Of a DNA stretch of 47,024 bases, positions 27,876 through 41,566 are shown piece by piece. The notes under the pieces were generated by a model. That model did not search any database and was not told where the DNA came from. It was given only the letters and a program-made list of their open reading frames with translations. A program made the position numbers and the translations under genes. How positions within the stretch are numbered: position 1 is the first letter of the stretch; every line of letters begins with the position of its first letter. The DNA is from Oscillospiraceae bacterium (GTDB lineage Bacteria > Bacillota > Clostridia > Oscillospirales > UBA929): the NCBI GenBank assembly GCA_031255175.1, contig JAIRTA010000091.1:1-47024 (forward strand), given 5' to 3'.

Positions 27876-29285
27876 ATGACTTCTTCGTTTGACGCATATT
27901 TGCGCGCGTTTCGGGGCGTTTCGGTGGCCGTACTCGGCATCGGCGTCAGCAACACGCCGCTCATCCGCCTGCTGGCGGGCGCCGGCGCGCGCGTGACGGC
28001 CTGCGACCGAAAAGAGCGCGCGGCGCTGGGGCCCGCCGCGGATGAACTCGCGGCGCTGGGCGTCGATCTGCGCTGCGGTCCCGACTATCTGGACCATCTC
28101 ACACAGCAGCGCATCTACCGCACGCCGGGGATGCGCCCCGACTTGCCGGCGCTCGCGCGGGCCCGGGCGGGCGGCGCCGTCGTCACCTCGGAGATGGAGG
28201 ACTTCCTGTCCGTTTGCCCCTGCCCCGTCATCGGTGTGACCGGCAGCGACGGCAAGACGACAACCGCCACGCTGGTCGCGGAGATGCTCCGCGCCGAGGG
28301 CGTGACCGTCCACCTGGGCGGCAACATCGGCCGGCCGCTGCTGGCCGACGCCGGCCGCATGACCCCGGAAGACGCGGCGGTGCTGGAGTTGTCGTCCTTC
28401 CAACTGATGACCCTGCCGACAAGCCCCGGCGCGGCGGTGATCACCAACGTGACGCCGAACCATCTCGACGTCCATCTCTCGATGGAAGAATACGTACAGG
28501 CCAAAGAAAATATCTTTCGCCACCAGGACAAAAACGGGCTGGTCGTCTTAAACGCCGGCTGCGCGCGCACGCGGGTCATGGCCGAAGCGGCCCCGGGCCG
28601 GGCGCGCCTCTTCTCCGGAACCGCGCCGCTGCCGGAGGGCGTGTCGCTGGAAGACGGCATACTCGTCGTCCGGGAGGACGGCCGGCGCGAGCGCCTGTTT
28701 GCCGCGCGGGAAATCCGCCTGCCCGGAATGCACAATGTGGAAAACTATCTGGCGGCCTGCGCCGTGTTGTACGGGCGCGTGCGCCCGGAGACTATGGCGC
28801 GGGTCGCCCGGGATTTCGCCGGCGTGCCGCACCGGATCGAATTCGTCGCGGAGGTGGGGGGCGTGCGCTGCTACAACGACTCCATCGCCTCCAGCCCCAC
28901 GAGGACGCTGGCCGGGCTGCGCGCGTTCGCGCAGAAGGTGATCCTCATCGCGGGCGGATACGATAAGCGCATCCCGTTCGACGACCTGGGCCCGGCGGCG
29001 GCGGCGCATGTGAAGTCGCTCATCCTCATCGGCGCCACGGCGCCCGCGATCCGTGCCGCCGTGGCGGGCGTGCCCGGCGCGCCGCCCATCACCGACGCCG
29101 GGGATCTCACACGAGCGGTGTGCGCGGCGTTTGCGCAGGCGGCGCCCGGCGACGTCATCCTGCTCTCGCCCGCGTGCGCCTCGTTTGACCAGTTCCCGAA
29201 CTTCGAGGCGCGCGGGAATCGCTTCAAAGAACTGGTGCTCGCCCGGGCAACGGTACGCCGGGCGGGAACGGAGGAACCCATATGA
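27876..29285 (+). CDS. murD: UDP-N-acetylmuramoylalanine--D-glutamate ligase
   Basis: 469 aa with an N-terminal Rossmann-like VAVLGIGVSN, the Mur ligase P-loop GVTGSDGKTTT, and a C-terminal Mur ligase domain. Confidence 0.88.
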   Translation: MTSSFDAYLRAFRGVSVAVLGIGVSNTPLIRLLAGAGARVTACDRKERAALGPAADELAALGVDLRCGPDYLDHLTQQRIYRTPGMRPDLPALARARAGGAVVTSEMEDFLSVCPCPVIGVTGSDGKTTTATLVAEMLRAEGVTVHLGGNIGRPLLADAGRMTPEDAAVLELSSFQLMTLPTSPGAAVITNVTPNHLDVHLSMEEYVQAKENIFRHQDKNGLVVLNAGCARTRVMAEAAPGRARLFSGTAPLPEGVSLEDGILVVREDGRRERLFAAREIRLPGMHNVENYLAACAVLYGRVRPETMARVARDFAGVPHRIEFVAEVGGVRCYNDSIASSPTRTLAGLRAFAQKVILIAGGYDKRIPFDDLGPAAAAHVKSLILIGATAPAIRAAVAGVPGAPPITDAGDLTRAVCAAFAQAAPGDVILLSPACASFDQFPNFEARGNRFKELVLARATVRRAGTEEPI

Positions 29286-30358
29286 CAGACGTCTTCGCCC
29301 TGCTCTCGGAACTCACCCACCCGCCGGGGCCGGCCGGCCGGGAGGGCCCGGCCGTGCATGCCGCCGCGGCGCTGCTGGCCCCGCTGACGGACAGCGTGGA
29401 GATCGACCGGCTGGGCAGCCTGATCGGCCGCAAACGGTGCGGCAGGCCGGACGCGCCCCTGCTGCTGCTGGACGCGCATCTCGATGAGGTCGGCTTTGTC
29501 ATCACAGGCCGCGCGGGGGGCTTTCTGCGCTTTCGCACGGTGGGCGGCATCGACCCGCGCGTCCTGCCAAACCAATCCGTCCGCCTGCTCGGCGACCCGC
29601 CCGGCCTCGGGCTCGTCACCTGCCTGCCGCCCCATTTGCAGAGCGCGGACAGCGCACGCGTGATCCCGACGGACGATCTCTTCATCGACACCGGCCTCAC
29701 GGAGGCGGAGGTGGCGCGCCGTTTTCCGGTGGGCACATTCTGCGTCTTCGACGCGGCGTGCTTTTCGCTCGGCAGCGGGCAGTGCGCAGGCCGCGCGCTG
29801 GACGACCGGGCCGGGTTTGCCGTACTGCTGCGCGCGCTGACGCTCCTGGGCGACACCGCGTGCGCCGCGGACCTCGCGGTGTGCGGCAGCGTGCAGGAGG
29901 AGGCGGGGTTCCGGGGCGCGCGCGCGGCGGCCTTCGGCCTTCGGCCGGACGTCTGCATCGCGGTGGATGTGACCCACGCGCACACGCCGGACGCCCCGCC
30001 CGCGCGCACATTCGCGCCCGGCGGCGGGCCGTGTATCGGCGTGGGGCCGAACTGCGACCGGCGCCTGGCGGCGGCGCTGACCGCGCTGGCGCGGGCCCGG
30101 GGAATCCCCTTTCAGATCGAAGCGATGGAGGGCTCCAGCGGCACAAACGGATGGGTGCTGCAAACCGCCGGCGCGGGCACCGCGACGGCCGTGCTGTCGG
30201 TGCCGCTCAAGTACATGCACACCCCCGTCGAAACACTCCGCCTGGATGATCTGGAAAACACCGCGCGCCTGCTTTGCGCCTTTCTCTCATCCCAGGAACT
30301 GGAAGAACTCGCGCCGGCGCGGGGCGCGGCAAATCGCTTAGGACCTGTTCAGAAATAA
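29282..30358 (+). CDS. M42-family (TET/FrvX/YsdC-like) aminopeptidase, paralog 1
   Basis: 358 aa with all five metal-ligand motifs present: AHLDEVG, ALDDRAG, VQEEAG, IAVDVT, KYMHTP. ATGA overlap with murD. Confidence 0.85.
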   Translation: MTDVFALLSELTHPPGPAGREGPAVHAAAALLAPLTDSVEIDRLGSLIGRKRCGRPDAPLLLLDAHLDEVGFVITGRAGGFLRFRTVGGIDPRVLPNQSVRLLGDPPGLGLVTCLPPHLQSADSARVIPTDDLFIDTGLTEAEVARRFPVGTFCVFDAACFSLGSGQCAGRALDDRAGFAVLLRALTLLGDTACAADLAVCGSVQEEAGFRGARAAAFGLRPDVCIAVDVTHAHTPDAPPARTFAPGGGPCIGVGPNCDRRLAAALTALARARGIPFQIEAMEGSSGTNGWVLQTAGAGTATAVLSVPLKYMHTPVETLRLDDLENTARLLCAFLSSQELEELAPARGAANRLGPVQK

Positions 30359-30399: not shown

Positions 30400-31428
30400 A
30401 TGCTTTCATTGGTCAAGACACTCTGCGCGCTGGACGGCGTCTCCGGCTGGGAGGACGAGGTGCGCGACGAGATCCGCCGGCGGGTCGCCCCGTACGCCGA
30501 CGAGATCCGCTCCGACGCGCTCGGCAACCTGATGGTCTTCCGGCGCGGGGCGCGTCCGGACGGCCGGACGCTCATGCTCTGCGCCCACATGGACGAGGTG
30601 GGGCTTCTTGTCAAGCGGATCACCGACGAGGGGTATCTGCGCTTCGGCTGCGTCGGCGGGTTTGACCGGCGGGTTCTCCCGGGGCGCCGCGTGTCGGTCG
30701 GGCCGGGCAAACACCCGGGGGTCATCGGTCTCAGGGCCTACCATCTGCGCGAGCGCGAGGACGACGACAAACCGCCGAAAGTCGAAGACCTTTACATCGA
30801 CATCGGGGCGCGCGACCGGGCCGAAGCCGAGGCGATGGCCGCGCCGGGCGACGTGTGCGCCTTCCACAGCCCGCCGGAGGACTCCGGCGCGGAGTGGATC
30901 CGGGCCAAAGCGCTGGACGACCGGGCGGGCTGCGCCTGCCTGGTCCGGCTGCTGGCCGAGGCGCGCCCGGCGCCGGACACCTGGACGGTCTTTACGGTTC
31001 AGGAGGAGGTCGGCGCCCGGGGCGCGCACGCGGCGGGCCAGACCCTCGCCCCCGATTTCGCCGTGGTGGTGGAGAGCACCACGGCGGCCGAGCAGCCGGA
31101 CCTGCCGCCGCACAAACAGGTCTGCCATCTGGGCGGCGGCGTGGTCATCCCCGTCATGGACCGGGGCACGGTGTACGACGCGGGCCTGACGCGGCGGCTG
31201 ATCGCGACGGCCGAGGCCGCCGGTATCCCCTGGCAATACAAAGAATTTTTGGCCGGCGGCACAGACGCGGGCGCGCTCCACCTCAGCCGGTGCGGCGTAC
31301 CGGTCGCCGCGCTGGCCCTGCCGGTGCGCTATCTGCACAGCGCCCACTCCCTGGCAAACCCCGCCGATCTCACACATCTTTACGCGCTCTTGCGCGCCTT
31401 TGTCACGCAATTTTCAACCCGGGCATGA
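30400..31428 (+). CDS. M42-family aminopeptidase, paralog 2
   Basis: 342 aa with AHMDEVG, ALDDRAG, VQEEVG, VVVEST and RYLHSA. RBS GGTGAG. Confidence 0.85.
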   Translation: MLSLVKTLCALDGVSGWEDEVRDEIRRRVAPYADEIRSDALGNLMVFRRGARPDGRTLMLCAHMDEVGLLVKRITDEGYLRFGCVGGFDRRVLPGRRVSVGPGKHPGVIGLRAYHLREREDDDKPPKVEDLYIDIGARDRAEAEAMAAPGDVCAFHSPPEDSGAEWIRAKALDDRAGCACLVRLLAEARPAPDTWTVFTVQEEVGARGAHAAGQTLAPDFAVVVESTTAAEQPDLPPHKQVCHLGGGVVIPVMDRGTVYDAGLTRRLIATAEAAGIPWQYKEFLAGGTDAGALHLSRCGVPVAALALPVRYLHSAHSLANPADLTHLYALLRAFVTQFSTRA

Positions 31429-31521: not shown

Positions 31522-32607
31522 ATGACAGAAACGGCGGGGATCACAGAATTCACAAACACCTTGCGCGCGCTGGCGGGCATTGTGGGGGTGTCGGGCGACG
31601 AGGACGCGGTGGCCCGGGCGATCTCGGCGCTGGCGGCCCCCTACGCGGACGAGACGCACACAGACGCGCTCGGCAATCTGATCGTCCGCCGACGGGGCCC
31701 GGGGCCGCATGTCATGCTATCCGCCCGCATGGACACCGCCGGCCTGCTTGTCACACACGTCGACGCGGCGGGCTTCGCGCGCGTGGCCCCCGTGGGCGCG
31801 CTGCCGCTCCCCCACGCGCTGGGCCACGCGTTCGCGCTGGCGGGCGGCGCGCGCGGCGTCTTGGCCCACGAGGGCAAAACCGCACCGAAGGACGTCACTT
31901 GGGAACACTGTTATCTCGACTTCGGCGCGTCCGGCCGCGAGAATTGCGCGGCGCAGGTCGGAGACCGCGCCGCGCTGGCGGCGGAGACTTTTGTGGCGGG
32001 CAGCCGCGTCGTCTCGCCCGGCCTGAGCGGCCGCGCCGGCTGCGCGGTGCTGCTGCGCGTGCTGGCGCAGATGCGGCCGCCGGCGTGCTGCGACCTCTCC
32101 TTTGTCTTCACGGCGCAGGGAGCGCTCGGCGCGCGCGGGGCCCGCACGGCGTCTTACGCGCTCGCGCCGGCGTGGGCCGTCTCCGTCGGCGTCTCCGAAA
32201 CCGGCGACACGCCGGAGAGCGCCCACAAAAACGAGGTGACGCTGGGCGGCGGCGGCGCCCTGCGGGTGATGGACGACACACTGATCACCCCCGCCCCTCT
32301 GCTGCGCCTTCTGGAAGACACCGCCCGGGCGCGTCAGATCCCCCTCCAGCGGGCCGTGCCGCCGCGGGGCGGTTCCGACGCAGGCGCCGTCCTCATCTCG
32401 CGGTCCGGCGTGCCCGCCGGCGCCGTTGACATCCCGGTCCGCTACGCACACACGGCGGTCGAAACGGCCGATTTGCGCGACTTTATCTCATGTTCCGATC
32501 TGATCGCCGCCCTGCCGGCCGCATTTTCTGCTCTGGAAGCCGGTGGAAATGCGGAAGAAACCGGCGGAAATGCGGAAAATGATTTGACAAGGCGGCTTTC
32601 GACATGA
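31522..32607 (+). CDS. M42-fold paralog 3 with degenerate active site (probable pseudopeptidase)
   Basis: 361 aa, alignable to paralogs 1 and 2. The ligand motifs read ARMDTAG, GLSGRAG, AQGALG and VSVGVS; only RYAHTA is retained. Confidence 0.8.
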   Translation: MTETAGITEFTNTLRALAGIVGVSGDEDAVARAISALAAPYADETHTDALGNLIVRRRGPGPHVMLSARMDTAGLLVTHVDAAGFARVAPVGALPLPHALGHAFALAGGARGVLAHEGKTAPKDVTWEHCYLDFGASGRENCAAQVGDRAALAAETFVAGSRVVSPGLSGRAGCAVLLRVLAQMRPPACCDLSFVFTAQGALGARGARTASYALAPAWAVSVGVSETGDTPESAHKNEVTLGGGGALRVMDDTLITPAPLLRLLEDTARARQIPLQRAVPPRGGSDAGAVLISRSGVPAGAVDIPVRYAHTAVETADLRDFISCSDLIAALPAAFSALEAGGNAEETGGNAENDLTRRLST

Positions 32608-32613: not shown

Positions 32614-32700
32614 GATAACTACCGTAACGAAACGAGCGCCAAAATTGTAGAATGTGAAAAAGGCGCGGTGCGGACACTCAACTCGACAGGAGGGGAGACA

Positions 32701-33363
32701 GTGGATTACTCAAACGACCCAAACAACCAAAACAATCCCTACAACAGCTCCGACCAACCCCCGCAGCCGGGGGCGCCGTATCAGGAGCCGCAGCCGTACC
32801 AGGGGCAGCCCCCCTACCAGGGCCAGCCTCCGTATCCGGAGCAACCCCCTTACCAGGGCCAACCCCCGTATCAGGAGCAGCCTCCCTATCAGGGCCAGCC
32901 TCCCTACCAACCGCAGCAGCCCTACAAGGGCCAGCAACCTTATCTTGGGCCGCAGCCCTACCAAGACGCGCCGCCCTACCAGGGGCAAGCCTACCAGCCG
33001 CCTTACCAGGACCCCGGGGCGGCGTACCCGCCGTCCTATGACGCCGCCCAACCGGGCCACGCGCCGGGGCACGGCATGGGCATCGCTTCACTGGTCCTCG
33101 GCATCATCGCCTTGGTGATCATGTTCATTCCCTTTGTCAACATCGCCTCTCTCCTCATGTCCATCATCGGTCTCATCCTGGCCGTCAGCGCGCGGAAAAA
33201 GAACGCCGCCGCGGGCGTGACCGGCGGTGTGGCCACCGGCGGCCTCGTCTGCTGCATCATCGCGCTGGCGCTTTCCATTCTCGCTGTTGTGACCTGCACG
33301 CTCTGCGCGGCCGCCATTGGGAGTTACGCCGATGGGTTTTCAAATTTTTGGGATTATTATTGA
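32701..33363 (+). CDS. Pro/Gln/Tyr-rich hexapeptide-repeat protein with C-terminal membrane domain
   Basis: 220 aa from the GTG at 32701, 7 nt after AGGAGGGGAG. About a dozen QPPYQG-type repeats, then hydrophobic segments GIASLVLGIIALVIMFIPFV... and GGLVCCIIALALSILAVV (DUF4190-like by recollection). Confidence 0.75.
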   Translation: MDYSNDPNNQNNPYNSSDQPPQPGAPYQEPQPYQGQPPYQGQPPYPEQPPYQGQPPYQEQPPYQGQPPYQPQQPYKGQQPYLGPQPYQDAPPYQGQAYQPPYQDPGAAYPPSYDAAQPGHAPGHGMGIASLVLGIIALVIMFIPFVNIASLLMSIIGLILAVSARKKNAAAGVTGGVATGGLVCCIIALALSILAVVTCTLCAAAIGSYADGFSNFWDYY

Positions 33364-35851: not shown

Positions 35852-36421
35852 ATGCTTTCCTGGGATGCCTTGGAGTCCTCTGTGCGGGGCTGCGCGCGCT
35901 GCGCGCTGGCGGAGACCCGGCAAAACGTCGTCTTTGGCGTGGGCAAACGGGACGCCGGCGTCATGTTCATCGGGGAGGGGCCCGGGCAGCAGGAGGATCT
36001 CACCGGAGAACCTTTTGTGGGCCGGGCGGGCAAGCTGCTTGACGACATGATGACGGTCATCGGGCTCGACCGCACGCGCGTGTACATCGCCAATATCGTC
36101 AAATGCCGCCCGCCGGGCAACCGCGACCCGCTCGGGGTGGAGCAAGACGCCTGCATCGGCTGGCTGCGCAACCAAGTCGCGCTGATCCGCCCCAAGATCA
36201 TCGTCTGCCTGGGCCGCGTCGCGGCGGTGCGCATCATCAAAGAAGATTTTAAGATCACCCGCGAACACGGCGTGATCTTTCCGCGCGGCGACTACCGGCT
36301 CATGGCCACCTTCCACCCCTCGTTCCTGCTGCGCGATCCGCGCCGGCGTCCGGAGGCTTTCGACGACCTGAAAATCCTGGAGGCCGCCATTTTGGAGTGC
36401 TGTCCCGACACGTTGGCCTGA
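35852..36421 (+). CDS. Family-4 uracil-DNA glycosylase
   Basis: 189 aa with the Cys cluster CARCAL, the motif GEGPGQQED, and the C-terminal HPSFLLR. The ATG at 35852 follows GGAGAGAGGGTG. Confidence 0.88.
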
Positions 36422-36561
36422 CCCGGAGCGGATCGGCCCGCGTGTCGTGTGGGGGCGTGTACGTGCGCCTATATATTGCGGCGTGGGGTCCTTTTCTTCA
36501 CCATGACTTTCCTATGCGCATAGGATGGGGTAAATGTCAGAAGGACTTGGGAGGGACCGTC

Positions 36562-37629
36562 ATGTCGGCAGAATTCTTTTTGGGCGCCAACACCCCGGCA
36601 GGGTTTTATTCATTATACGATGGGCTCATCGACACGGACACCGCGCGGGACGTCATCGTGCTCAAAGGGGGGCCCGGCTGCGGGAAGTCCACTTTTATGC
36701 GTCGGGTCGGCGCGTTGGTGGCCGACGCCGGTCACAGCGTCGAATTCATTCTCTGCTCCTCCGACCCGGACTCGCTGGACGGCGTGGTTTTTCCCGGCCT
36801 GAAGGCCGCCGTCGTCGACGGCACCGCGCCCCATGTGGTGGAGCCCGTCTTCCCGCTGGCGGTCGAGCGCTACTGCAACCTGGGCGCGCACTGCGACGTA
36901 GACGCCGTTAAGCTGCACGTGGCGGAGATCCGGCGGCTGACCCGCGCAATCCGCCCCTGTTACGCGCGCGCCACCCGCTGCCTGTCCGCCGCCCGCGCGC
37001 TGGAAGACGACATGTTTGACTGCGTGCTGAACAACGCGGCGCTGGATACGCTGGCGCGCCGCGCGCGAGGGATCATCAGCCGGGAGATCAAACCGGGGCC
37101 CGGTCCGGCGCTGAAAAAACGTTTTCTCAGCGCCATCACGCCGCGCGGTCTGCTCTGCCGTCACGACACGGCGCACGCCCTCTGCCCCCGCCTCTACGAA
37201 TTGAACGACGACTACGGGCTGGCGCATATGATGCTCTCCCCCATCCTGGAAGCGGCTCTCGCCGCCGGGCAAGAGGCTATCGCCTGCTACAGCCCGATGA
37301 ACCCGGACCATCAGCTCGAGCACCTGCTGTTCCCCGGCCTGGGGGTCGGTTTTGTCTCCTCCGGGCATCTGCACGCCTACGACGGAAAACCCTTCCGCCG
37401 CCTGCGCTTAAACGCCTGTCTGGACCCGGAGCTGCTGCGCCGTCATCGCGTCCGTCTGCGCTTTCTGCGCAAGACCGAGCACGCCCTGATGGCCGAGGCG
37501 GTGGGGGCGCTGGCCGACGCCAAACGTCTCCACGACGAGCTGGAGTCCCACTACTGCCCTCACATGGACTTTGCCGCCGTCAAACACTGCGCCGACCAAA
37601 CCGCCGCCTGTCTCTTGCGCCAGGCATGA
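36562..37629 (+). CDS. P-loop NTPase of unknown function
   Basis: 355 aa with Walker A GGPGCGKST near the N-terminus and a possible Walker B AAVVDGT. I cannot name a family. The ATG at 36562 follows GGGAGGGA. Host-like GC. Confidence 0.7.
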   Translation: MSAEFFLGANTPAGFYSLYDGLIDTDTARDVIVLKGGPGCGKSTFMRRVGALVADAGHSVEFILCSSDPDSLDGVVFPGLKAAVVDGTAPHVVEPVFPLAVERYCNLGAHCDVDAVKLHVAEIRRLTRAIRPCYARATRCLSAARALEDDMFDCVLNNAALDTLARRARGIISREIKPGPGPALKKRFLSAITPRGLLCRHDTAHALCPRLYELNDDYGLAHMMLSPILEAALAAGQEAIACYSPMNPDHQLEHLLFPGLGVGFVSSGHLHAYDGKPFRRLRLNACLDPELLRRHRVRLRFLRKTEHALMAEAVGALADAKRLHDELESHYCPHMDFAAVKHCADQTAACLLRQA

Positions 37630-37635
37630 CAAAAA

Positions 37636-37661
37636 CACCCCGCAGTCGCCGCTGCGGGGTG
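37636..37661. terminator. Bidirectional intrinsic terminator at the left island border
   Basis: CACCCCGCAG-TCGCCG-CTGCGGGGTG. T-rich (TTATGTT) after it on the plus strand and TTTTT after it on the minus strand (plus A-run 37631-37635). It serves the converging ATPase gene and the island operon. Confidence 0.85.
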
Positions 37662-37753
37662 TTATGTTAGACGCAGAGGAATTGGAAATTTCAGGTTTTT
37701 CAAAGCCCCCGTTCCGCGGTGGCCGCGAAAAGGATCCGCCGTTCAGCGGGTTC

Positions 37754-38908
37754 TCACTTTTCGCTTCGTTTCAATGTCACTACAAACCAATTTTTCTCTC
37801 TGTCATCGAAAAAATCGATGTCAGGATAGCAGCTCAAAGCACGCAAAATGCCGGAACCGTAACCGCGATAAGGCAACACATGATTTGCAAACGAGGCCAG
37901 CAGAGGGTTCCTTGCATTTGAGTTTCCCGATTTGATGTTCGCAACTGTCAAATTATTCGGCAAATGCCCGGGACTTCTTATTTCTACACGGTTCCGAAAA
38001 ACAAATACCTGCACAGGCGCAGAAAGAAAATAATCGCGATGGATCAGTGCATTGGCAACAAGCTCTTCAATGGCTTCGGGAGGAATCTCCGGTATGCCCA
38101 CACTGTTTATGCCCTGCTCCCCTTGAATATGCCGGAGATTAGAGACAATAAAACTGACCGTCTGCCGAAACACATCGGACAATTTCCCTGTGATATCGCG
38201 GCTGTCATTGTACCCGGTAGCGGCAAGATCATTTGCGTCAAAGGCGCCCGCCTTGACGATGAAAATAGGCAGCCTAAATTGTGGTGACTTTGAAAAGAGC
38301 AATGTGGCGGCGACATTGAGAGAATCGTCTTTCAACAAATTCATATTTTCGAGAATCTTCGGCAATGGCAAGGTTTGCGCGTCCAGCGTCCGACCAAAAC
38401 GTCTTTGGAAAAAATCTCCAAAATATTCCAGATCTAAATCGGCTGTCGTGACGCCCGCAACCGGAAGTTCGTCCGCGTGGACAAGACTTGACGCTTGAAA
38501 CAACCGCTGTATTTCCTCACGAGAGGTCGCTTTCCGTTTATCAGCGCCATTTTTTACCCAGAATATACCATCCTTATCTTGATACGGCTTATTGATGCCG
38601 GAAGAGATGTCAACCACCACAACAAGTCCGCTATCTGTCATGATATTCTCAGTCGAGGGATTGATCGCGGGTTGAATCCATTGACTGGCGACATTGGATA
38701 TCATCTGATTTAAGCGGCGCACATCGTCGCCGGTCAACCCGGAAATTGAACCATCGTCGTCAACACCGATGAATATTTTACCTCCGCCTCCGTTGCTAAA
38801 AGCAACCATTTCAGAGGCCAGCGCTTCTCGACTGTTTATGTTTTTTTTAAATTGCCGGCTGCTGTCCTCACCGCGTTCCAGAAGAGATAAAAGTTCTATG
38901 ATTTCCAT
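37754..38908 (-). CDS. AlbA_2 (Schlafen-like) nucleic-acid-binding domain fused to a GHKL-like (HATPase_c_4-type) C-terminal domain
   Basis: 384 aa. The N-terminus, LLERGEDSSRQFKKNI...EMVAFSNGGGGKIFIGVDDDGSISGL, fits the AlbA_2 pattern (E..EFK, then AF.N..GG.i.iGV.D.G). The C-terminus, EELVANALIHRDYFLSAPVQVFVFRNRVEIRSPGHLPNNLTV...RNPLLASF...RGYGSGILRAL, fits the family often mis-annotated as RecG-like. AT-rich codon usage. RBS AAGGAG about 10 nt upstream. Confidence 0.75.
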   Translation of the reverse strand: MEIIELLSLLERGEDSSRQFKKNINSREALASEMVAFSNGGGGKIFIGVDDDGSISGLTGDDVRRLNQMISNVASQWIQPAINPSTENIMTDSGLVVVVDISSGINKPYQDKDGIFWVKNGADKRKATSREEIQRLFQASSLVHADELPVAGVTTADLDLEYFGDFFQRRFGRTLDAQTLPLPKILENMNLLKDDSLNVAATLLFSKSPQFRLPIFIVKAGAFDANDLAATGYNDSRDITGKLSDVFRQTVSFIVSNLRHIQGEQGINSVGIPEIPPEAIEELVANALIHRDYFLSAPVQVFVFRNRVEIRSPGHLPNNLTVANIKSGNSNARNPLLASFANHVLPYRGYGSGILRALSCYPDIDFFDDREKNWFVVTLKRSEK

Positions 38909-41511
38909 ATTTTATAAATCTCCTTTCTTCTTTCGAACGCCTCTTCGCCGCCCTCCATAATGACAACAATTTGTTCCTGCTGTGTGGGGTTGTCAATGCT
39001 GCCGCTTTGGATAGAAATTTTCGTATCTGAGAGCGAGCAAGCATGTATTTGTTCGGCGTCGCCAAGGACAGGAATATTTGGATTGTGTGTCGCAAAGATG
39101 AATTGTATTTTTGGTTTTAATCTACATATCAATTTAATGACATCTTCATAAATGCTTCGGTTGTCAAGATCATCTTCCGGCTGGTCGATAATGACAACAT
39201 CGTTTTCTTGCTGGCCCAACACAAACAAAATCAACGCCGACGCTCGTTGCCCCAGCGAATGCTCCGCGAGTTTCTTGTCATGGTACATAATGGTATATTT
39301 ATTGGGTGTCTGATAGGTGAGCAAATTTTTCAGATTTTGGTTGAACAGATCGGAAAACTTATCAGGGCTGCTGCCAAACATATTTTTTGCGTTTTCAAAA
39401 TCACAGTAAATATCAGAAAAACTCGAATATTTTTCAACGAGATTTTGTAAAGTAACCTCTCTTGTGTTGCTGCCTCTGAATACATTTTTGAAATAGTCAC
39501 GAAACGCGGCTTTATCTTCCTTAAACTCGACTGAAAATCTCAGTGCCGTGTTTTTTTGAGAAATCTCATCCAATTCAGCCTTGACCATTTGGAATTCTTC
39601 ATGCCAAAGATCATTCAGCTTATGCAATTCTTCATATAGATTGTTTTGGACCGTGTTTTTTTGGTCTTTGTTTTTTGAAAGTGCCGCCAATTTTGTCTCG
39701 GCGGCAATCAATTGTTTTTTGGCCGCCAAAAATTCATCTGTACTGATGTTTTGTCCAATGGCAGTTTTTAGTTCCGTCGCAAGCACTCGCTCGACCTCAG
39801 CGAACTCATCTGCCAATCCGTCCCGCGCCACGAGAAGTTTTTCATGTTCTTTCCTCAATATATCAAGAACCGCTTCCGACCCTGCCAATTCCGCTTTTAT
39901 AATTTCTATGCTTTGAATGCTCCGCATGAAATGTCCGTCGAATTTTTCAAACAATTCAGCGTTGTTTTCAGAAGTATACCCGGAAAAATTGCGCAATTCA
40001 TCCTCGTGTTTTGCGAGCAAATCCCGAATATCGGAGGCAAGTAGTTCAATCAGATGTATCCCTTTTTGGGCCTTGCGAATATCCGCTTCAAAACCGAGAC
40101 GTTTTTGCAATCTTTCTTCGAGTTTGTGTTCTTTATAAAAATTGAGTCGAAATTCCATATTCTGTTTTATTTTTGTCTGTTCTGCGATGAGCTCATCGAC
40201 ATTGCTAATTTTTGACAATCTGTCAATGGCCTCTATGACTCTCGATTTTTGTTCGGCAATTCGACGATGGATCTCATCGCATTTGGTGTTCAATAATTTC
40301 TCAATCAGATCTTTTCCCGAATCTTTTCCGGCAGTGGCAAGTTCTTTTTGACCAAAAAACAGCGGCTTATTTAAAACAGTTTCGCGAATGGAAACGCCTG
40401 GCTGCCATTTTTCCTCGATGAACACTTTGGCGTTTTCTTTCAATATCCGCCTGATCTGATATGGCTGCCCGTGGCGGTCTACGACATCGAGCACAACTCT
40501 GCCCCCGCTGCCAAGTGTGCGCTCCACCAATCTCTCCTTATATCCGCGCTCGCTGTCATTTTCTTCAAGCCGAATGTCCAAAACATAGCGCAAAGCCTCT
40601 AAAATCGAGGATTTTCCACTGCCGCGGATGCCGATAAAGGTGTTGAGTTCCGGTGAAAAACAGATCGTCTGTCCGTCCAGCGTCCCACCCTCAAAACGCA
40701 TTTGTCTGATATGCGAATGCGTATATTGCGGCACACTTTCTGAACACACGCGATGCTCATAATCTGCCAGCGCGAATTTAACGGCTTCAAATGTGAACGC
40801 GCCGAGTTTGAGATAACAGGCTTTCTTTTGCCCAATCTGCTCAATATTTTTGGGGTCGCTGCCCTCCACCTCCGCAGGATACCACCCTCTGAGCCAGTGT
40901 TTGACCTTTTGCCGTTCGTCCTGCGTTCTGACCTGCTGAAAACCCCGTGTCCGCTCTCTAACTGTTTGATATCTTGAGCCACACCACTCCTGGAATCTCC
41001 CGCCGCCGATTTCGTGCCACAGGCCCTTGCTGTCCTCAACATGGGCAAAAATCAGAAAATAATCATATCCCGATTTTTCAAGTTCTTCCACCGTTTGCAA
41101 GATGTTTTTATCACTGCACCCATTCTTATTTTCATACTCTGTCCGCGCCTTGCCGGGGAACATAGCATTCAGAAACGGAGATATCTTATCATTTCCATTC
41201 TCAATCCATGTATCGGCAAAGACAACCAAAACATGGGTGCCATTTGCGCCCTCGCCCACAGACAATTCGACACCGGGGAGTAAAAATATATTTTCCTTCT
41301 TTGCCGTTTTCCGCAACGCGCTGAACTCTTCCAGCTTGAATTTGTTGTGATTCGCAATTACGCCGACACGTATACGCGCCCTCTTTAACGCGTCAACATA
41401 GTCAGTGTTATAATAATTCTCATCACCGGAATACCCAAATTCTCTATCTGCCTTGGTGTGCAGATGGAAATCCGCTCGCATCCACGCGGCTCCGTTTGAA
41501 AACAAATTCAT
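38896..41511 (-). CDS. PHP phosphoesterase fused to a Rad50/SbcC-like coiled-coil ABC ATPase
   Basis: 871 aa. PHP motifs: ADFHLHT (13-19), VIANHN (51-56), GVE (80-82), THV (92-94), FAHVED (155-160), GSD (217-219). Walker A GIRGSGKSS (294-302). A long helical Lys/Glu/Leu-rich insert (about 400-700). Signature-like HSLGQRAS (751-758). Walker B/D-loop VVIIDQPEDDLD (772-783). H-loop FATHN (806-810). RBS GAGGTGA before the ATG at 41511. Confidence 0.8.
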   Translation of the reverse strand: MNLFSNGAAWMRADFHLHTKADREFGYSGDENYYNTDYVDALKRARIRVGVIANHNKFKLEEFSALRKTAKKENIFLLPGVELSVGEGANGTHVLVVFADTWIENGNDKISPFLNAMFPGKARTEYENKNGCSDKNILQTVEELEKSGYDYFLIFAHVEDSKGLWHEIGGGRFQEWCGSRYQTVRERTRGFQQVRTQDERQKVKHWLRGWYPAEVEGSDPKNIEQIGQKKACYLKLGAFTFEAVKFALADYEHRVCSESVPQYTHSHIRQMRFEGGTLDGQTICFSPELNTFIGIRGSGKSSILEALRYVLDIRLEENDSERGYKERLVERTLGSGGRVVLDVVDRHGQPYQIRRILKENAKVFIEEKWQPGVSIRETVLNKPLFFGQKELATAGKDSGKDLIEKLLNTKCDEIHRRIAEQKSRVIEAIDRLSKISNVDELIAEQTKIKQNMEFRLNFYKEHKLEERLQKRLGFEADIRKAQKGIHLIELLASDIRDLLAKHEDELRNFSGYTSENNAELFEKFDGHFMRSIQSIEIIKAELAGSEAVLDILRKEHEKLLVARDGLADEFAEVERVLATELKTAIGQNISTDEFLAAKKQLIAAETKLAALSKNKDQKNTVQNNLYEELHKLNDLWHEEFQMVKAELDEISQKNTALRFSVEFKEDKAAFRDYFKNVFRGSNTREVTLQNLVEKYSSFSDIYCDFENAKNMFGSSPDKFSDLFNQNLKNLLTYQTPNKYTIMYHDKKLAEHSLGQRASALILFVLGQQENDVVIIDQPEDDLDNRSIYEDVIKLICRLKPKIQFIFATHNPNIPVLGDAEQIHACSLSDTKISIQSGSIDNPTQQEQIVVIMEGGEEAFERRKEIYKIWKS

Positions 41512-41566
41512 ACCCTTTCACCTCACTCCAGAAGCGTTTTTGCCACGATGATCCATGATTTATGTA

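Follow-up and report, generated by a model that had tools for sequence, protein, structure and literature searches.

A trlF-trlG pair in an Oscillospiraceae genome: a putative mobile defence cassette joining a variant Schlafen-GHKL protein to a PHP-ATPase

The DNA analysed here, hereafter the window, is a stretch of 47,024 nucleotides from an Oscillospiraceae bacterium (contig JAIRTA010000091.1 of assembly GCA_031255175.1). Its minus strand carries two overlapping genes that are almost certainly orthologues of trlF and trlG, the conserved core of the 'temperature restriction locus' (TRL), trlR-trlF-trlG, which halts growth of Photorhabdus laumondii above ~35 °C (Hapeshi 2020, PMC7554251). The upstream gene encodes a PHP phosphoesterase fused to an ABC/SMC-type ATPase (TrlF), and the downstream gene a Schlafen domain joined to a GHKL ATP-binding domain (TrlG). 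Our overall reading, moderately favoured by the evidence below, is that the TRL core is a defence cassette that combines a Ppl-like exonuclease with an ATP-driven, growth-arresting Schlafen module.

A first-pass annotation, made from the letters of the window without database searches, had singled out the smaller gene and knew of no description of such a pairing as a system. In fact the pair corresponds to trlF-trlG of TRL (PMC7554251), the larger protein passes the NCBIfam model NF045780, and the domain fusion in the smaller one goes by the names 'Schlatpase' and pSlfn-HisKinase. The PF13749 module of the former name is carried by 60,692 of 103,533 prokaryotic Schlafen-domain proteins (bioRxiv 10.64898/2026.05.29.728809), and the 'HisKinase' fusion is the commonest bacterial Schlafen architecture, at 34% (PMC13056530). 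Both the trlF-trlG pairing and the fusion of AlbA_2 to PF13749 had thus already been named, and the window provides a further instance in a Firmicute without trlR, not a new system. New here are the counts of pairing, the conserved gene overlap, the co-divergence of the two proteins, their context in defence operons, and an Ex4QxK motif in the TrlG clade.

Identity and domains of the two proteins

The trlG open reading frame (ORF) spans 37754..38908 on the minus strand, where all features of the two genes lie, and encodes 384 amino acids from an ATG start. This is exactly the span given by the first-pass annotation, and every motif quoted there is present in the translation: GEDSSRQFK at residues 13-21, VAFSNGGGGKIFIGVDDDG at 35-53, ELVANALIHRDY at 282-293, VEIRSPG at 308-314, RNP at 333-335 and GYGSGI at 349-354. 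Homologues of TrlG number in the thousands, the best 120 being 66-100% identical, and such numbers place the ORF far beyond chance. The two domains proposed from the motifs were borne out by hidden Markov model searches against Pfam, both well above cutoff. PF04326 (SLFN_AlbA_2) matched residues 14-127 (38528..38869; E = 4.4e-22, 79 bits against a cutoff of 25), a region that includes the Schlafen box VAFSN at residues 35-39 and GVDDDG at 48-53. PF13749 (HATPase_c_4) matched a GHKL-type core at residues 297-360 (37829..38020; E = 4.7e-13, 49 bits against a cutoff of 26) that encloses the SPG, RNP and GYGSG lid motifs, with the N-box, E282-x3-N286, just upstream of it.

Fold comparison gave the same picture. 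An AlphaFold2 model of TrlG built from 37 orthologues (mean predicted local distance difference test, pLDDT, 76; predicted template modelling score, pTM, 0.49; flexible linker) matched the structural-genomics protein 3LMM over its full length in Foldseek (E = 1e-17). Its N-terminal domain resembled those of SLFN14, 11, 13, 12 and 5 and the SAMD9 tRNase (2e-5 to 8e-4), and its C-terminal domain matched pyruvate dehydrogenase kinases, including PDK4, and histidine kinases, proteins with the GHKL fold. The Schlafen core of TrlG reads VAFSN-GGGGKIFIGVDDDG, and its profile lines up with the SAFAN-GG-GVxD region of SLFN12, 13, 14, 5 and 11; a Schlafen box is followed by the GG...GVxD core. On the GHKL side the PF13749 match is accompanied by the ExxxN N-box and a Gly-rich ATP lid. 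The pAgo model of PADLOC covers residues 34-321. With a Schlafen/AlbA_2 domain, a GHKL ATP-binding domain and no helix-turn-helix (HTH), TrlG represents the 'Schlatpase' in minimal form.

The partner gene, trlF (38896..41511), encodes 871 amino acids. A PHP domain occupies residues ~12-170 (41002..41478), with the motifs DFHLHT, NHNKF, PG-ELS, H93 and AHVE. It is followed by an ABC/SMC-type ATPase whose Walker A, G294-IRGSGK-S301 (40609..40632), matches SMC_N, AAA_15 and AAA_29, and whose signature-like HSLGQRAS (residues 751-758) and Walker B/D-loop VVIIDQPEDDLD (772-783) lie at 39163..39261, AAA_21 matching residues 619-813. The ATPase contains a long helical insert, and the ~400 residues between Walker A and the signature motif are less conserved. 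Among 34 full-length orthologues, by comparison, the PHP motifs are at least 97% conserved and the ABC motifs GIRGSGKS, HSLGQRAS, IDQPEDDLD and ATHNPN essentially invariant, the GIRGSGKS Walker A being kept in all. This conservation indicates that TrlF combines an intact PHP phosphoesterase with an ATPase of the SMC/ABC type. The protein scored 540 bits, against a cutoff of 350, with the NCBIfam equivalog NF045780, 'TrlF family AAA-like ATPase', over model positions 1-944. The PADLOC Ppl model matched residues 6-311 (1.5e-32), and both the Ppl and the CehA/McbA metallohydrolase models fall on the PHP region; weaker PADLOC matches were to AriA (2e-11, on the ATPase half), PtuA and mad3 ATPase models. 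A sequence search of the PDB with TrlF returned only marginal SMC Walker-A matches.

Orthology to TRL was established via the pair on the Yersinia ruckeri plasmid pYR3, one of the replicons on which the TRL operon is listed, along with Pseudomonas syringae-group plasmids and others (PMC7554251). The window proteins align with the pYR3 proteins end to end, at 56.4% identity for TrlG (383 residues) and 48.9% for TrlF (876 residues), and they are ~60% and ~48% identical, respectively, to the pair of IncC plasmids. As in Photorhabdus, the order is trlF then trlG and the genes overlap. Photorhabdus TrlG is a protein of ~383 residues with AlbA_2 at 14-128 and HATPase_c_4 at 298-365 (PMC7554251), practically the positions found here (14-127 and 297-360), and Photorhabdus TrlF bears the annotation 'histidinol phosphatase' (PMC7554251). 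The window differs from TRL in lacking trlR and in coming from a high-GC Firmicute, not a gammaproteobacterium. When the 79-residue TrlR-like protein of pYR3 was used as a tblastn query, neither the window nor the 80 metagenome loci described below gave a match, and the HTH gene of the IncC type was likewise absent from the window and all loci.

At the junction the two genes overlap by 13 nucleotides, ATGGAAATCATAG (38896..38908), such that the TAG stop of trlF sits inside the first codons of trlG, with a Shine-Dalgarno-like AAAGGAG ahead. The first-pass annotation had been right to place the smaller gene directly behind, and overlapping, a large PHP-ATPase gene.

Distribution and genomic context of the pair

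The first-pass annotation had also suggested surveying the neighbourhoods of homologues for adjacent PHP-ATPase genes, and such genes proved strongly enriched. An alignment-based scan yielded 80 metagenome loci with TrlG orthologues at 60-77% identity; 6 were too short to score, leaving 74 informative loci. In 44 of these trlF lies directly upstream of trlG, and in 34 of 40 junctions measured the 13-nucleotide overlap is identical to that in the window. In 30 loci, the pairwise identities among TrlFs closely track those among TrlGs (Mantel r = 0.865; none of 2000 permutations reached this value). The two genes move and diverge together. Their conserved overlap, along with the co-divergence, suggests synthesis of TrlF and TrlG in matched amounts and probably a complex between them.

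The partnership is real and strongly enriched, and it is facultative in both directions. Two loci retain only an N-terminal remnant of TrlF, 28 carry trlG without trlF, and stand-alone genes of the TrlF family occur on E. coli IncF plasmids (44% identity) and a Listeria plasmid (37%). For 10 of 27 orphan TrlGs the nearest relative is a paired TrlG, which implies that TrlF has been lost or gained repeatedly. The two remnants (L034:134-403 and L067:180-551) comprise just the first 96-125 residues of TrlF, its N-terminal PHP part, directly upstream of an intact TrlG, and look like deletion intermediates between paired and orphan TrlG.

The best 120 TrlG relatives come from Clostridia, Synergistota, Bacteroidota, Planctomycetota, Chitinispirillales and one archaeal metagenome-assembled genome (MAG), a spread across phyla that points to horizontal transfer. 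Conjugative plasmids also carry the trlFG cassette. In 22 of the 44 paired loci, and in 13 of the 23 that have at least 9 kb of sequence, the cassette is located inside or against modification-based defence operons of the bacteriophage exclusion (BREX), BREX-related and type I restriction-modification (R-M) types. The pair stands between PglX and PglZ (L063:1584-11386); between an N6/N4 methylase and SNF2 followed by PglZ (L073:2552-14133 and L058:2083-12105, PglZ lying further downstream in the latter); between an SNF2-NOV_C helicase and a DUF1156 methylase followed by a HEPN-DUF499 ATPase (L019:1775-15327); and, on IncC plasmids, within a type I R-M operon of the order hsdR, trlFG, hsdS, AAA, hsdM (L001:2411-13181). 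Orphan TrlGs were found in the same operon types as paired ones, and also beside a second AlbA_2-GHKL gene, a HipA-like kinase or an HsdR fragment. Genes for Schlafen-'minimal histidine kinase' proteins have been reported in BREX and BREX-related loci of at least 1017 taxa and presumed to be backup effectors (PMC12839542). The trlFG pair is probably mobile cargo for defence against phages or other mobile elements.

Two further loci of the survey deserve mention. At L044 two AlbA_2-HATPase_c_4 genes stand in tandem (3-1154 and 1165-2334), a distant paralogue preceding the TrlG orthologue, and genes for a RhuM-family protein and an AAA ATPase come after them. On the Bergeyella porcorum plasmid pQD2021 (L106:1348-5141), a TrlG-like gene of 33% identity, annotated as two 'ATP-binding protein' fragments, follows a gene for an AAA 'double-strand break repair' ATPase; the locus could be a remote and degraded counterpart of the trlF-trlG pair.

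Active site, proposed mechanism and alternatives

Schlafen nucleases depend on the motif Ex4(E/D)xK. TrlG instead has the variant Ex4QxK, E14-D15-S16-S17-R18-Q19-F20-K21 in the window (38846..38869). The clade motif is E14-D15-S16-x-x-Q19-F20-K21, and none of the 81 orthologues, whether paired or orphan, departs from E14, D15, Q19 or K21. In distant AlbA_2-GHKL proteins of the fetched loci, the alignment, which is unambiguous here, places Glu or Asp at the position of Q19 and Ser, Ala or Thr at that of D15. Other residues of the Schlafen site are also invariant in the 81 orthologues (E14, K21, N39 of the Schlafen box and D51 of GVxD), as are those of the GHKL domain: N286, H290, R291, P313, G314, N334, G349 and G353, encompassing the SPG, RNP and G349-x-G-x-G353 lid motifs. 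E282 of the N-box is invariant in an alignment of 37 sequences.

By alignment, Q19 of TrlG is at the position of the second catalytic carboxylate, the residue mutated in dead RorSlfn5 variants. The double mutant E15A/D20A of RorSlfn5 is inactive, showing that Ex4(E/D)xK is required (PMC13056530), and the single mutation D32A deprives RzAgo, the SLFN-pAgo of Runella zeae, of activity (bioRxiv 10.64898/2026.05.29.728809); from its numbering, D32 would correspond to Q19. TrlG would then either bind its substrate without cleaving it, as a pseudo-nuclease, or be an enzyme whose carboxylate has moved to D15.

Homologues ~50% identical to TrlG and likewise bearing Ex4QxK occur on IMG/VR viral contigs (L084:7956-9512, L085:8001-9512, L086:7989-9392). 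They are 467-518 residues long, carry an added C-terminal winged HTH (wHTH) or Fic-like_C domain, and have no TrlF nearby. The clade with Gln is therefore wider than TrlG proper and reaches predicted viral or prophage contigs.

Genetic data from Photorhabdus bear on which protein stops growth. All of 16 distinct mutations that restored growth at 36 °C were in trlG and none in trlF, and they span both TrlG domains (PMC7554251). Examples are S16N next to the motif, the Schlafen-box changes V35I and A36V, R126Q, and, in the region of the GHKL lid, P318R/L, S331Y, N335D and G354V; two stop codons and two insertion-sequence (IS) insertions in trlG are also among them (PMC7554251). Since trlF is 2.3 times longer than trlG, the chance that all 16 would fall in trlG is, by our calculation, 0.306^16 or ~6e-9, if both genes were needed and were equally mutable per base. 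The confinement of all 16 mutations to trlG, in both of its domains, argues that TrlG stops growth and that TrlF is not needed for the arrest. Arrested Photorhabdus cells remained viable, and the defect was complemented by the whole TRL operon (PMC7554251).

Biochemical precedents exist for both proteins. In RzAgo, ATP on the PF13749 GHKL domain causes tetramerization, which pairs two Schlafen domains into a bilobed arrangement like that of mammalian Schlafens and licenses tRNA cleavage (bioRxiv 10.64898/2026.05.29.728809). According to the same study, the Schlatpase active site consists of E(x)4(D/E)xK plus a 'SAFAN' box, and Schlatpase modules shift among Argonaute, NACHT and type I R-M contexts, some standing alone (bioRxiv 10.64898/2026.05.29.728809). 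Bacterial Schlafens are phage-triggered tRNases (PMC13056530). Ppl is a single-stranded DNA 3'-5' exonuclease inhibited by nucleoside triphosphates (NTPs) bound to both of its domains and released when phage infection depletes nucleotides (PMC12904381).

We tentatively propose a mechanism on these analogies, giving it somewhat less than even chances in its specifics. TrlG would be the growth-arresting arm. As in SLFN-pAgo, ATP on its GHKL domain would drive oligomerization, and the oligomer would pair Schlafen domains into a bilobed RNA-binding site, most likely for tRNA; engagement of this RNA would shut off translation and bring about a bacteriostatic arrest. TrlF, by analogy with Ppl, would be the nucleotide-gated 3'-5' exonuclease arm acting on invader DNA or DNA ends. 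The two would be made in matched amounts and probably form a complex, and each should also be able to act alone, since solitary genes of either kind exist in nature. The Photorhabdus temperature restriction would represent misfiring of TrlG, that is, autoimmunity, at high temperature.

A bolder version is possible but doubtful. In it, trlFG would be an unrecognised anti-phage system in which an Ex4QxK Schlafen with a compensating Asp15 is coupled to a Ppl-like PHP exonuclease. The two arms would sense nucleotides in opposite ways, TrlG needing ATP to assemble and TrlF being freed when NTPs fall. The system would serve as a backup layer in BREX, BREX-related and type I R-M operons, and the Photorhabdus phenotype would be heat-triggered autoimmunity.

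Several observations weigh against our overall reading. The canonical Ex4(E/D)xK is absent from TrlG, Gln replacing the second carboxylate in 81 of 81 orthologues, and together with the dead RorSlfn5 and RzAgo mutants this means that tRNA cleavage by TrlG is not assured. Of seven Schlafen systems tested by others, only the DUF262 and Ig-like fusions protected (PMC13056530); the HisKinase type thus gave no phenotype on its own, in a set that may or may not include TrlG. TrlF is only ~25% identical to Ppl and fails the NCBIfam Ppl equivalog NF042955 (151 bits against a cutoff of 1000), so that carrying over the Ppl mechanism is an analogy. The pairing is facultative, trlG lacking trlF at 28 of 74 informative loci, 17 of which have at least 1 kb of upstream sequence. 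When TrlG-paired and stand-alone TrlFs were compared for positions that separate them, as a docking surface might, none qualified. Finally, the trlFG of the window itself resides among housekeeping genes, not in a defence island.

The invariant Gln is also the chief argument for an alternative in which TrlG is a catalytically dead pseudo-Schlafen that serves as a nucleic-acid sensor or specificity subunit gating the PHP exonuclease of TrlF. The first-pass annotation had entertained a sensor or regulatory role of this kind. The identity of the residue (81 of 81) and the loss of activity in matching RorSlfn5 and RzAgo mutants speak for that part of the idea, as do the conserved 13-nucleotide translational coupling, the co-divergence, and the retention of all PHP and ATPase catalytic motifs in TrlF. 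What such a model leads one to expect is that TrlF executes the arrest, and this is at odds with 16 escape mutations in trlG and none in the 2.3-fold longer trlF: it is trlG, not trlF, that is needed in Photorhabdus. Moreover, TrlGs with the Gln motif lack TrlF in 28 of 74 loci, some of them among non-defence genes, and the invariant Asp15, absent from canonical relatives, could replace the lost carboxylate. We regard a dead sensor as unlikely.

The discoverers of TRL proposed physiological growth control, at high temperature or in stationary phase, rather than immunity. Induction of the operon by a temperature up-shift and in late growth, and the reversible nature of the P. laumondii arrest (PMC7554251), agree with this proposal. 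However, orthologues of 60-84% identity come from groups as far apart as Clostridia, Synergistota, Bacteroidota, Planctomycetota, Caldisericia, Gammaproteobacteria and an archaeal MAG; the genes travel on conjugative plasmids and are embedded in BREX, BREX-related and type I R-M operons; and the copy in the window is a low-GC island without trlR. A mobile, cross-phylum and defence-embedded spread fits defence cargo and not a lineage-specific thermostat, and growth control as the primary function seems to us improbable.

Alternatively, trlFG might be an addiction module resembling toxin-antitoxin pairs, with TrlG as the toxin and TrlF as its neutraliser, stabilising plasmids and islands. Carriage on plasmids and translational coupling would suit such a module, and the failure to recover trlF mutants would fit a lethal loss of trlF. 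TrlF, however, is an 871-residue enzyme with fully conserved catalytic motifs and not a small labile antitoxin, TrlG is commonly found without TrlF and TrlF-family genes without TrlG, and the large-then-small gene order and BREX/R-M embedding are typical of defence cassettes. We consider an addiction module very improbable.

Least credible of all, to the point of near dismissal, is that the database names 'ATP-dependent DNA helicase RecG', 'transcriptional regulator' and 'putative DNA binding domain-containing protein' are correct and TrlG is a RecG-like helicase fragment or an HTH regulator, for Pfam finds neither a helicase nor an HTH domain in its 384 residues, a C-terminal wHTH being a feature of longer relatives, and the TRL paper calls 'recG' a misnomer (PMC7554251), just as the first-pass annotation had suspected. 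The superfamily-2 core (DEAD/Helicase_C), the wedge and the HTH expected of a RecG helicase or transcription regulator are all missing, AlbA_2 and HATPase_c_4 being the only Pfam domains.

Set against known systems, TrlG shares with Schlatpases the two-domain module, the Schlafen box, the N-box and the Gly-rich lid, as well as an existence both stand-alone and in R-M-type operons. It differs from them by lacking an Argonaute or HTH extension, by its Ex4QxK motif, and by the coupling of ~60% of its orthologues to a PHP-ATPase, a link unreported in the 2026 Schlafen papers. TrlF resembles Ppl, an anti-phage protein (Gao et al. 2020), in carrying a PHP domain at the N-terminus ahead of an ABC/SMC-like ATPase, in its length of ~870-890 residues and in being plasmid-borne; besides the low identity, Ppl is a single-gene system, unlike the TrlF clade, which usually comes with TrlG. 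Like the BREX-embedded Schlafen-histidine kinase genes (PMC12839542), TrlG occurs, paired or alone, between pglX and pglZ, beside SNF2-PglZ, and in SNF2/DUF1156/HEPN-DUF499 operons. A PHP-ATPase partner is unmentioned in that paper (PMC12839542), and the copy in the window lies outside such operons. PARIS, consisting of the AriA ABC-ATPase sensor and the AriB Toprim tRNA nuclease, may offer a parallel as a two-gene combination of an ABC-type ATPase with a translation-targeting effector, although its effector fold is unrelated and TrlF has a nuclease domain of its own.

The value of the present case is that it joins the TRL phenotype of 2020, the Schlafen and 'Schlatpase' defence work of 2026, and Ppl. 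Read with the survey, these literatures suggest that a 'temperature restriction' locus is probably a mobile immune cassette, and they identify Ex4QxK in TrlG as a natural and widespread variation on the Schlafen active site. If TrlG is active, the range of functional Schlafen nucleases widens; if it is inactive, the Schlafen fold has been reused as a sensor or adaptor. Either way, annotations such as 'RecG' or 'RNA-binding domain-containing protein' could be corrected.

The island in the window and its neighbours

In the composition profile, trlF and trlG alone make up a low-GC island (37750..41560) of 40-47% GC, compared with ~65% for the flanks; an EamA transporter gene borders it on one side and a strong terminator on the other. 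Its neighbours are housekeeping genes of the host (EamA, SLH, UDG, SpoVT, Lgt), and the nearby SpoVT, UDG, Lgt and SLH-domain genes suggest that the host is a spore-forming Firmicute. A search of the flanks for tRNA genes, an integrase, target-site duplications, and inverted or bounding repeats around the island found none. A high-GC, spore-forming Firmicute probably gained this low-GC cassette, which consists of just the two genes, by horizontal transfer.

Only 55 nucleotides separate trlF from the EamA gene of the host, and no convincing sigma-70 promoter was found in this upstream gap; transcription of the cassette may come from EamA by read-through. Inverted-repeat analysis located an intrinsic terminator, a 12-bp stem followed by a T-run, that closes the trlFG transcript at 37634..37663 on the minus strand. 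It stands back-to-back with a convergent gene ending at 37629.

This convergent gene is a 410-residue ORF (36397-37629, plus strand) that has host-like GC content, no Pfam match and a P-loop-like GGPGCGKST; its stop abuts the terminator it has in common with trlG. Further away, three consecutive plus-strand ORFs of ~340-360 residues (29282-30358, 30400-31428 and 31522-32607) look like paralogues by their shared '...D.LGN/SL...' and '...LDDRAG...' motifs. They are followed by a plus-strand ORF of 231 residues (32668-33363), in which long degenerate Pro/Gln/Tyr repeats of the PYQGQPPYQ type precede hydrophobic, membrane-like segments.

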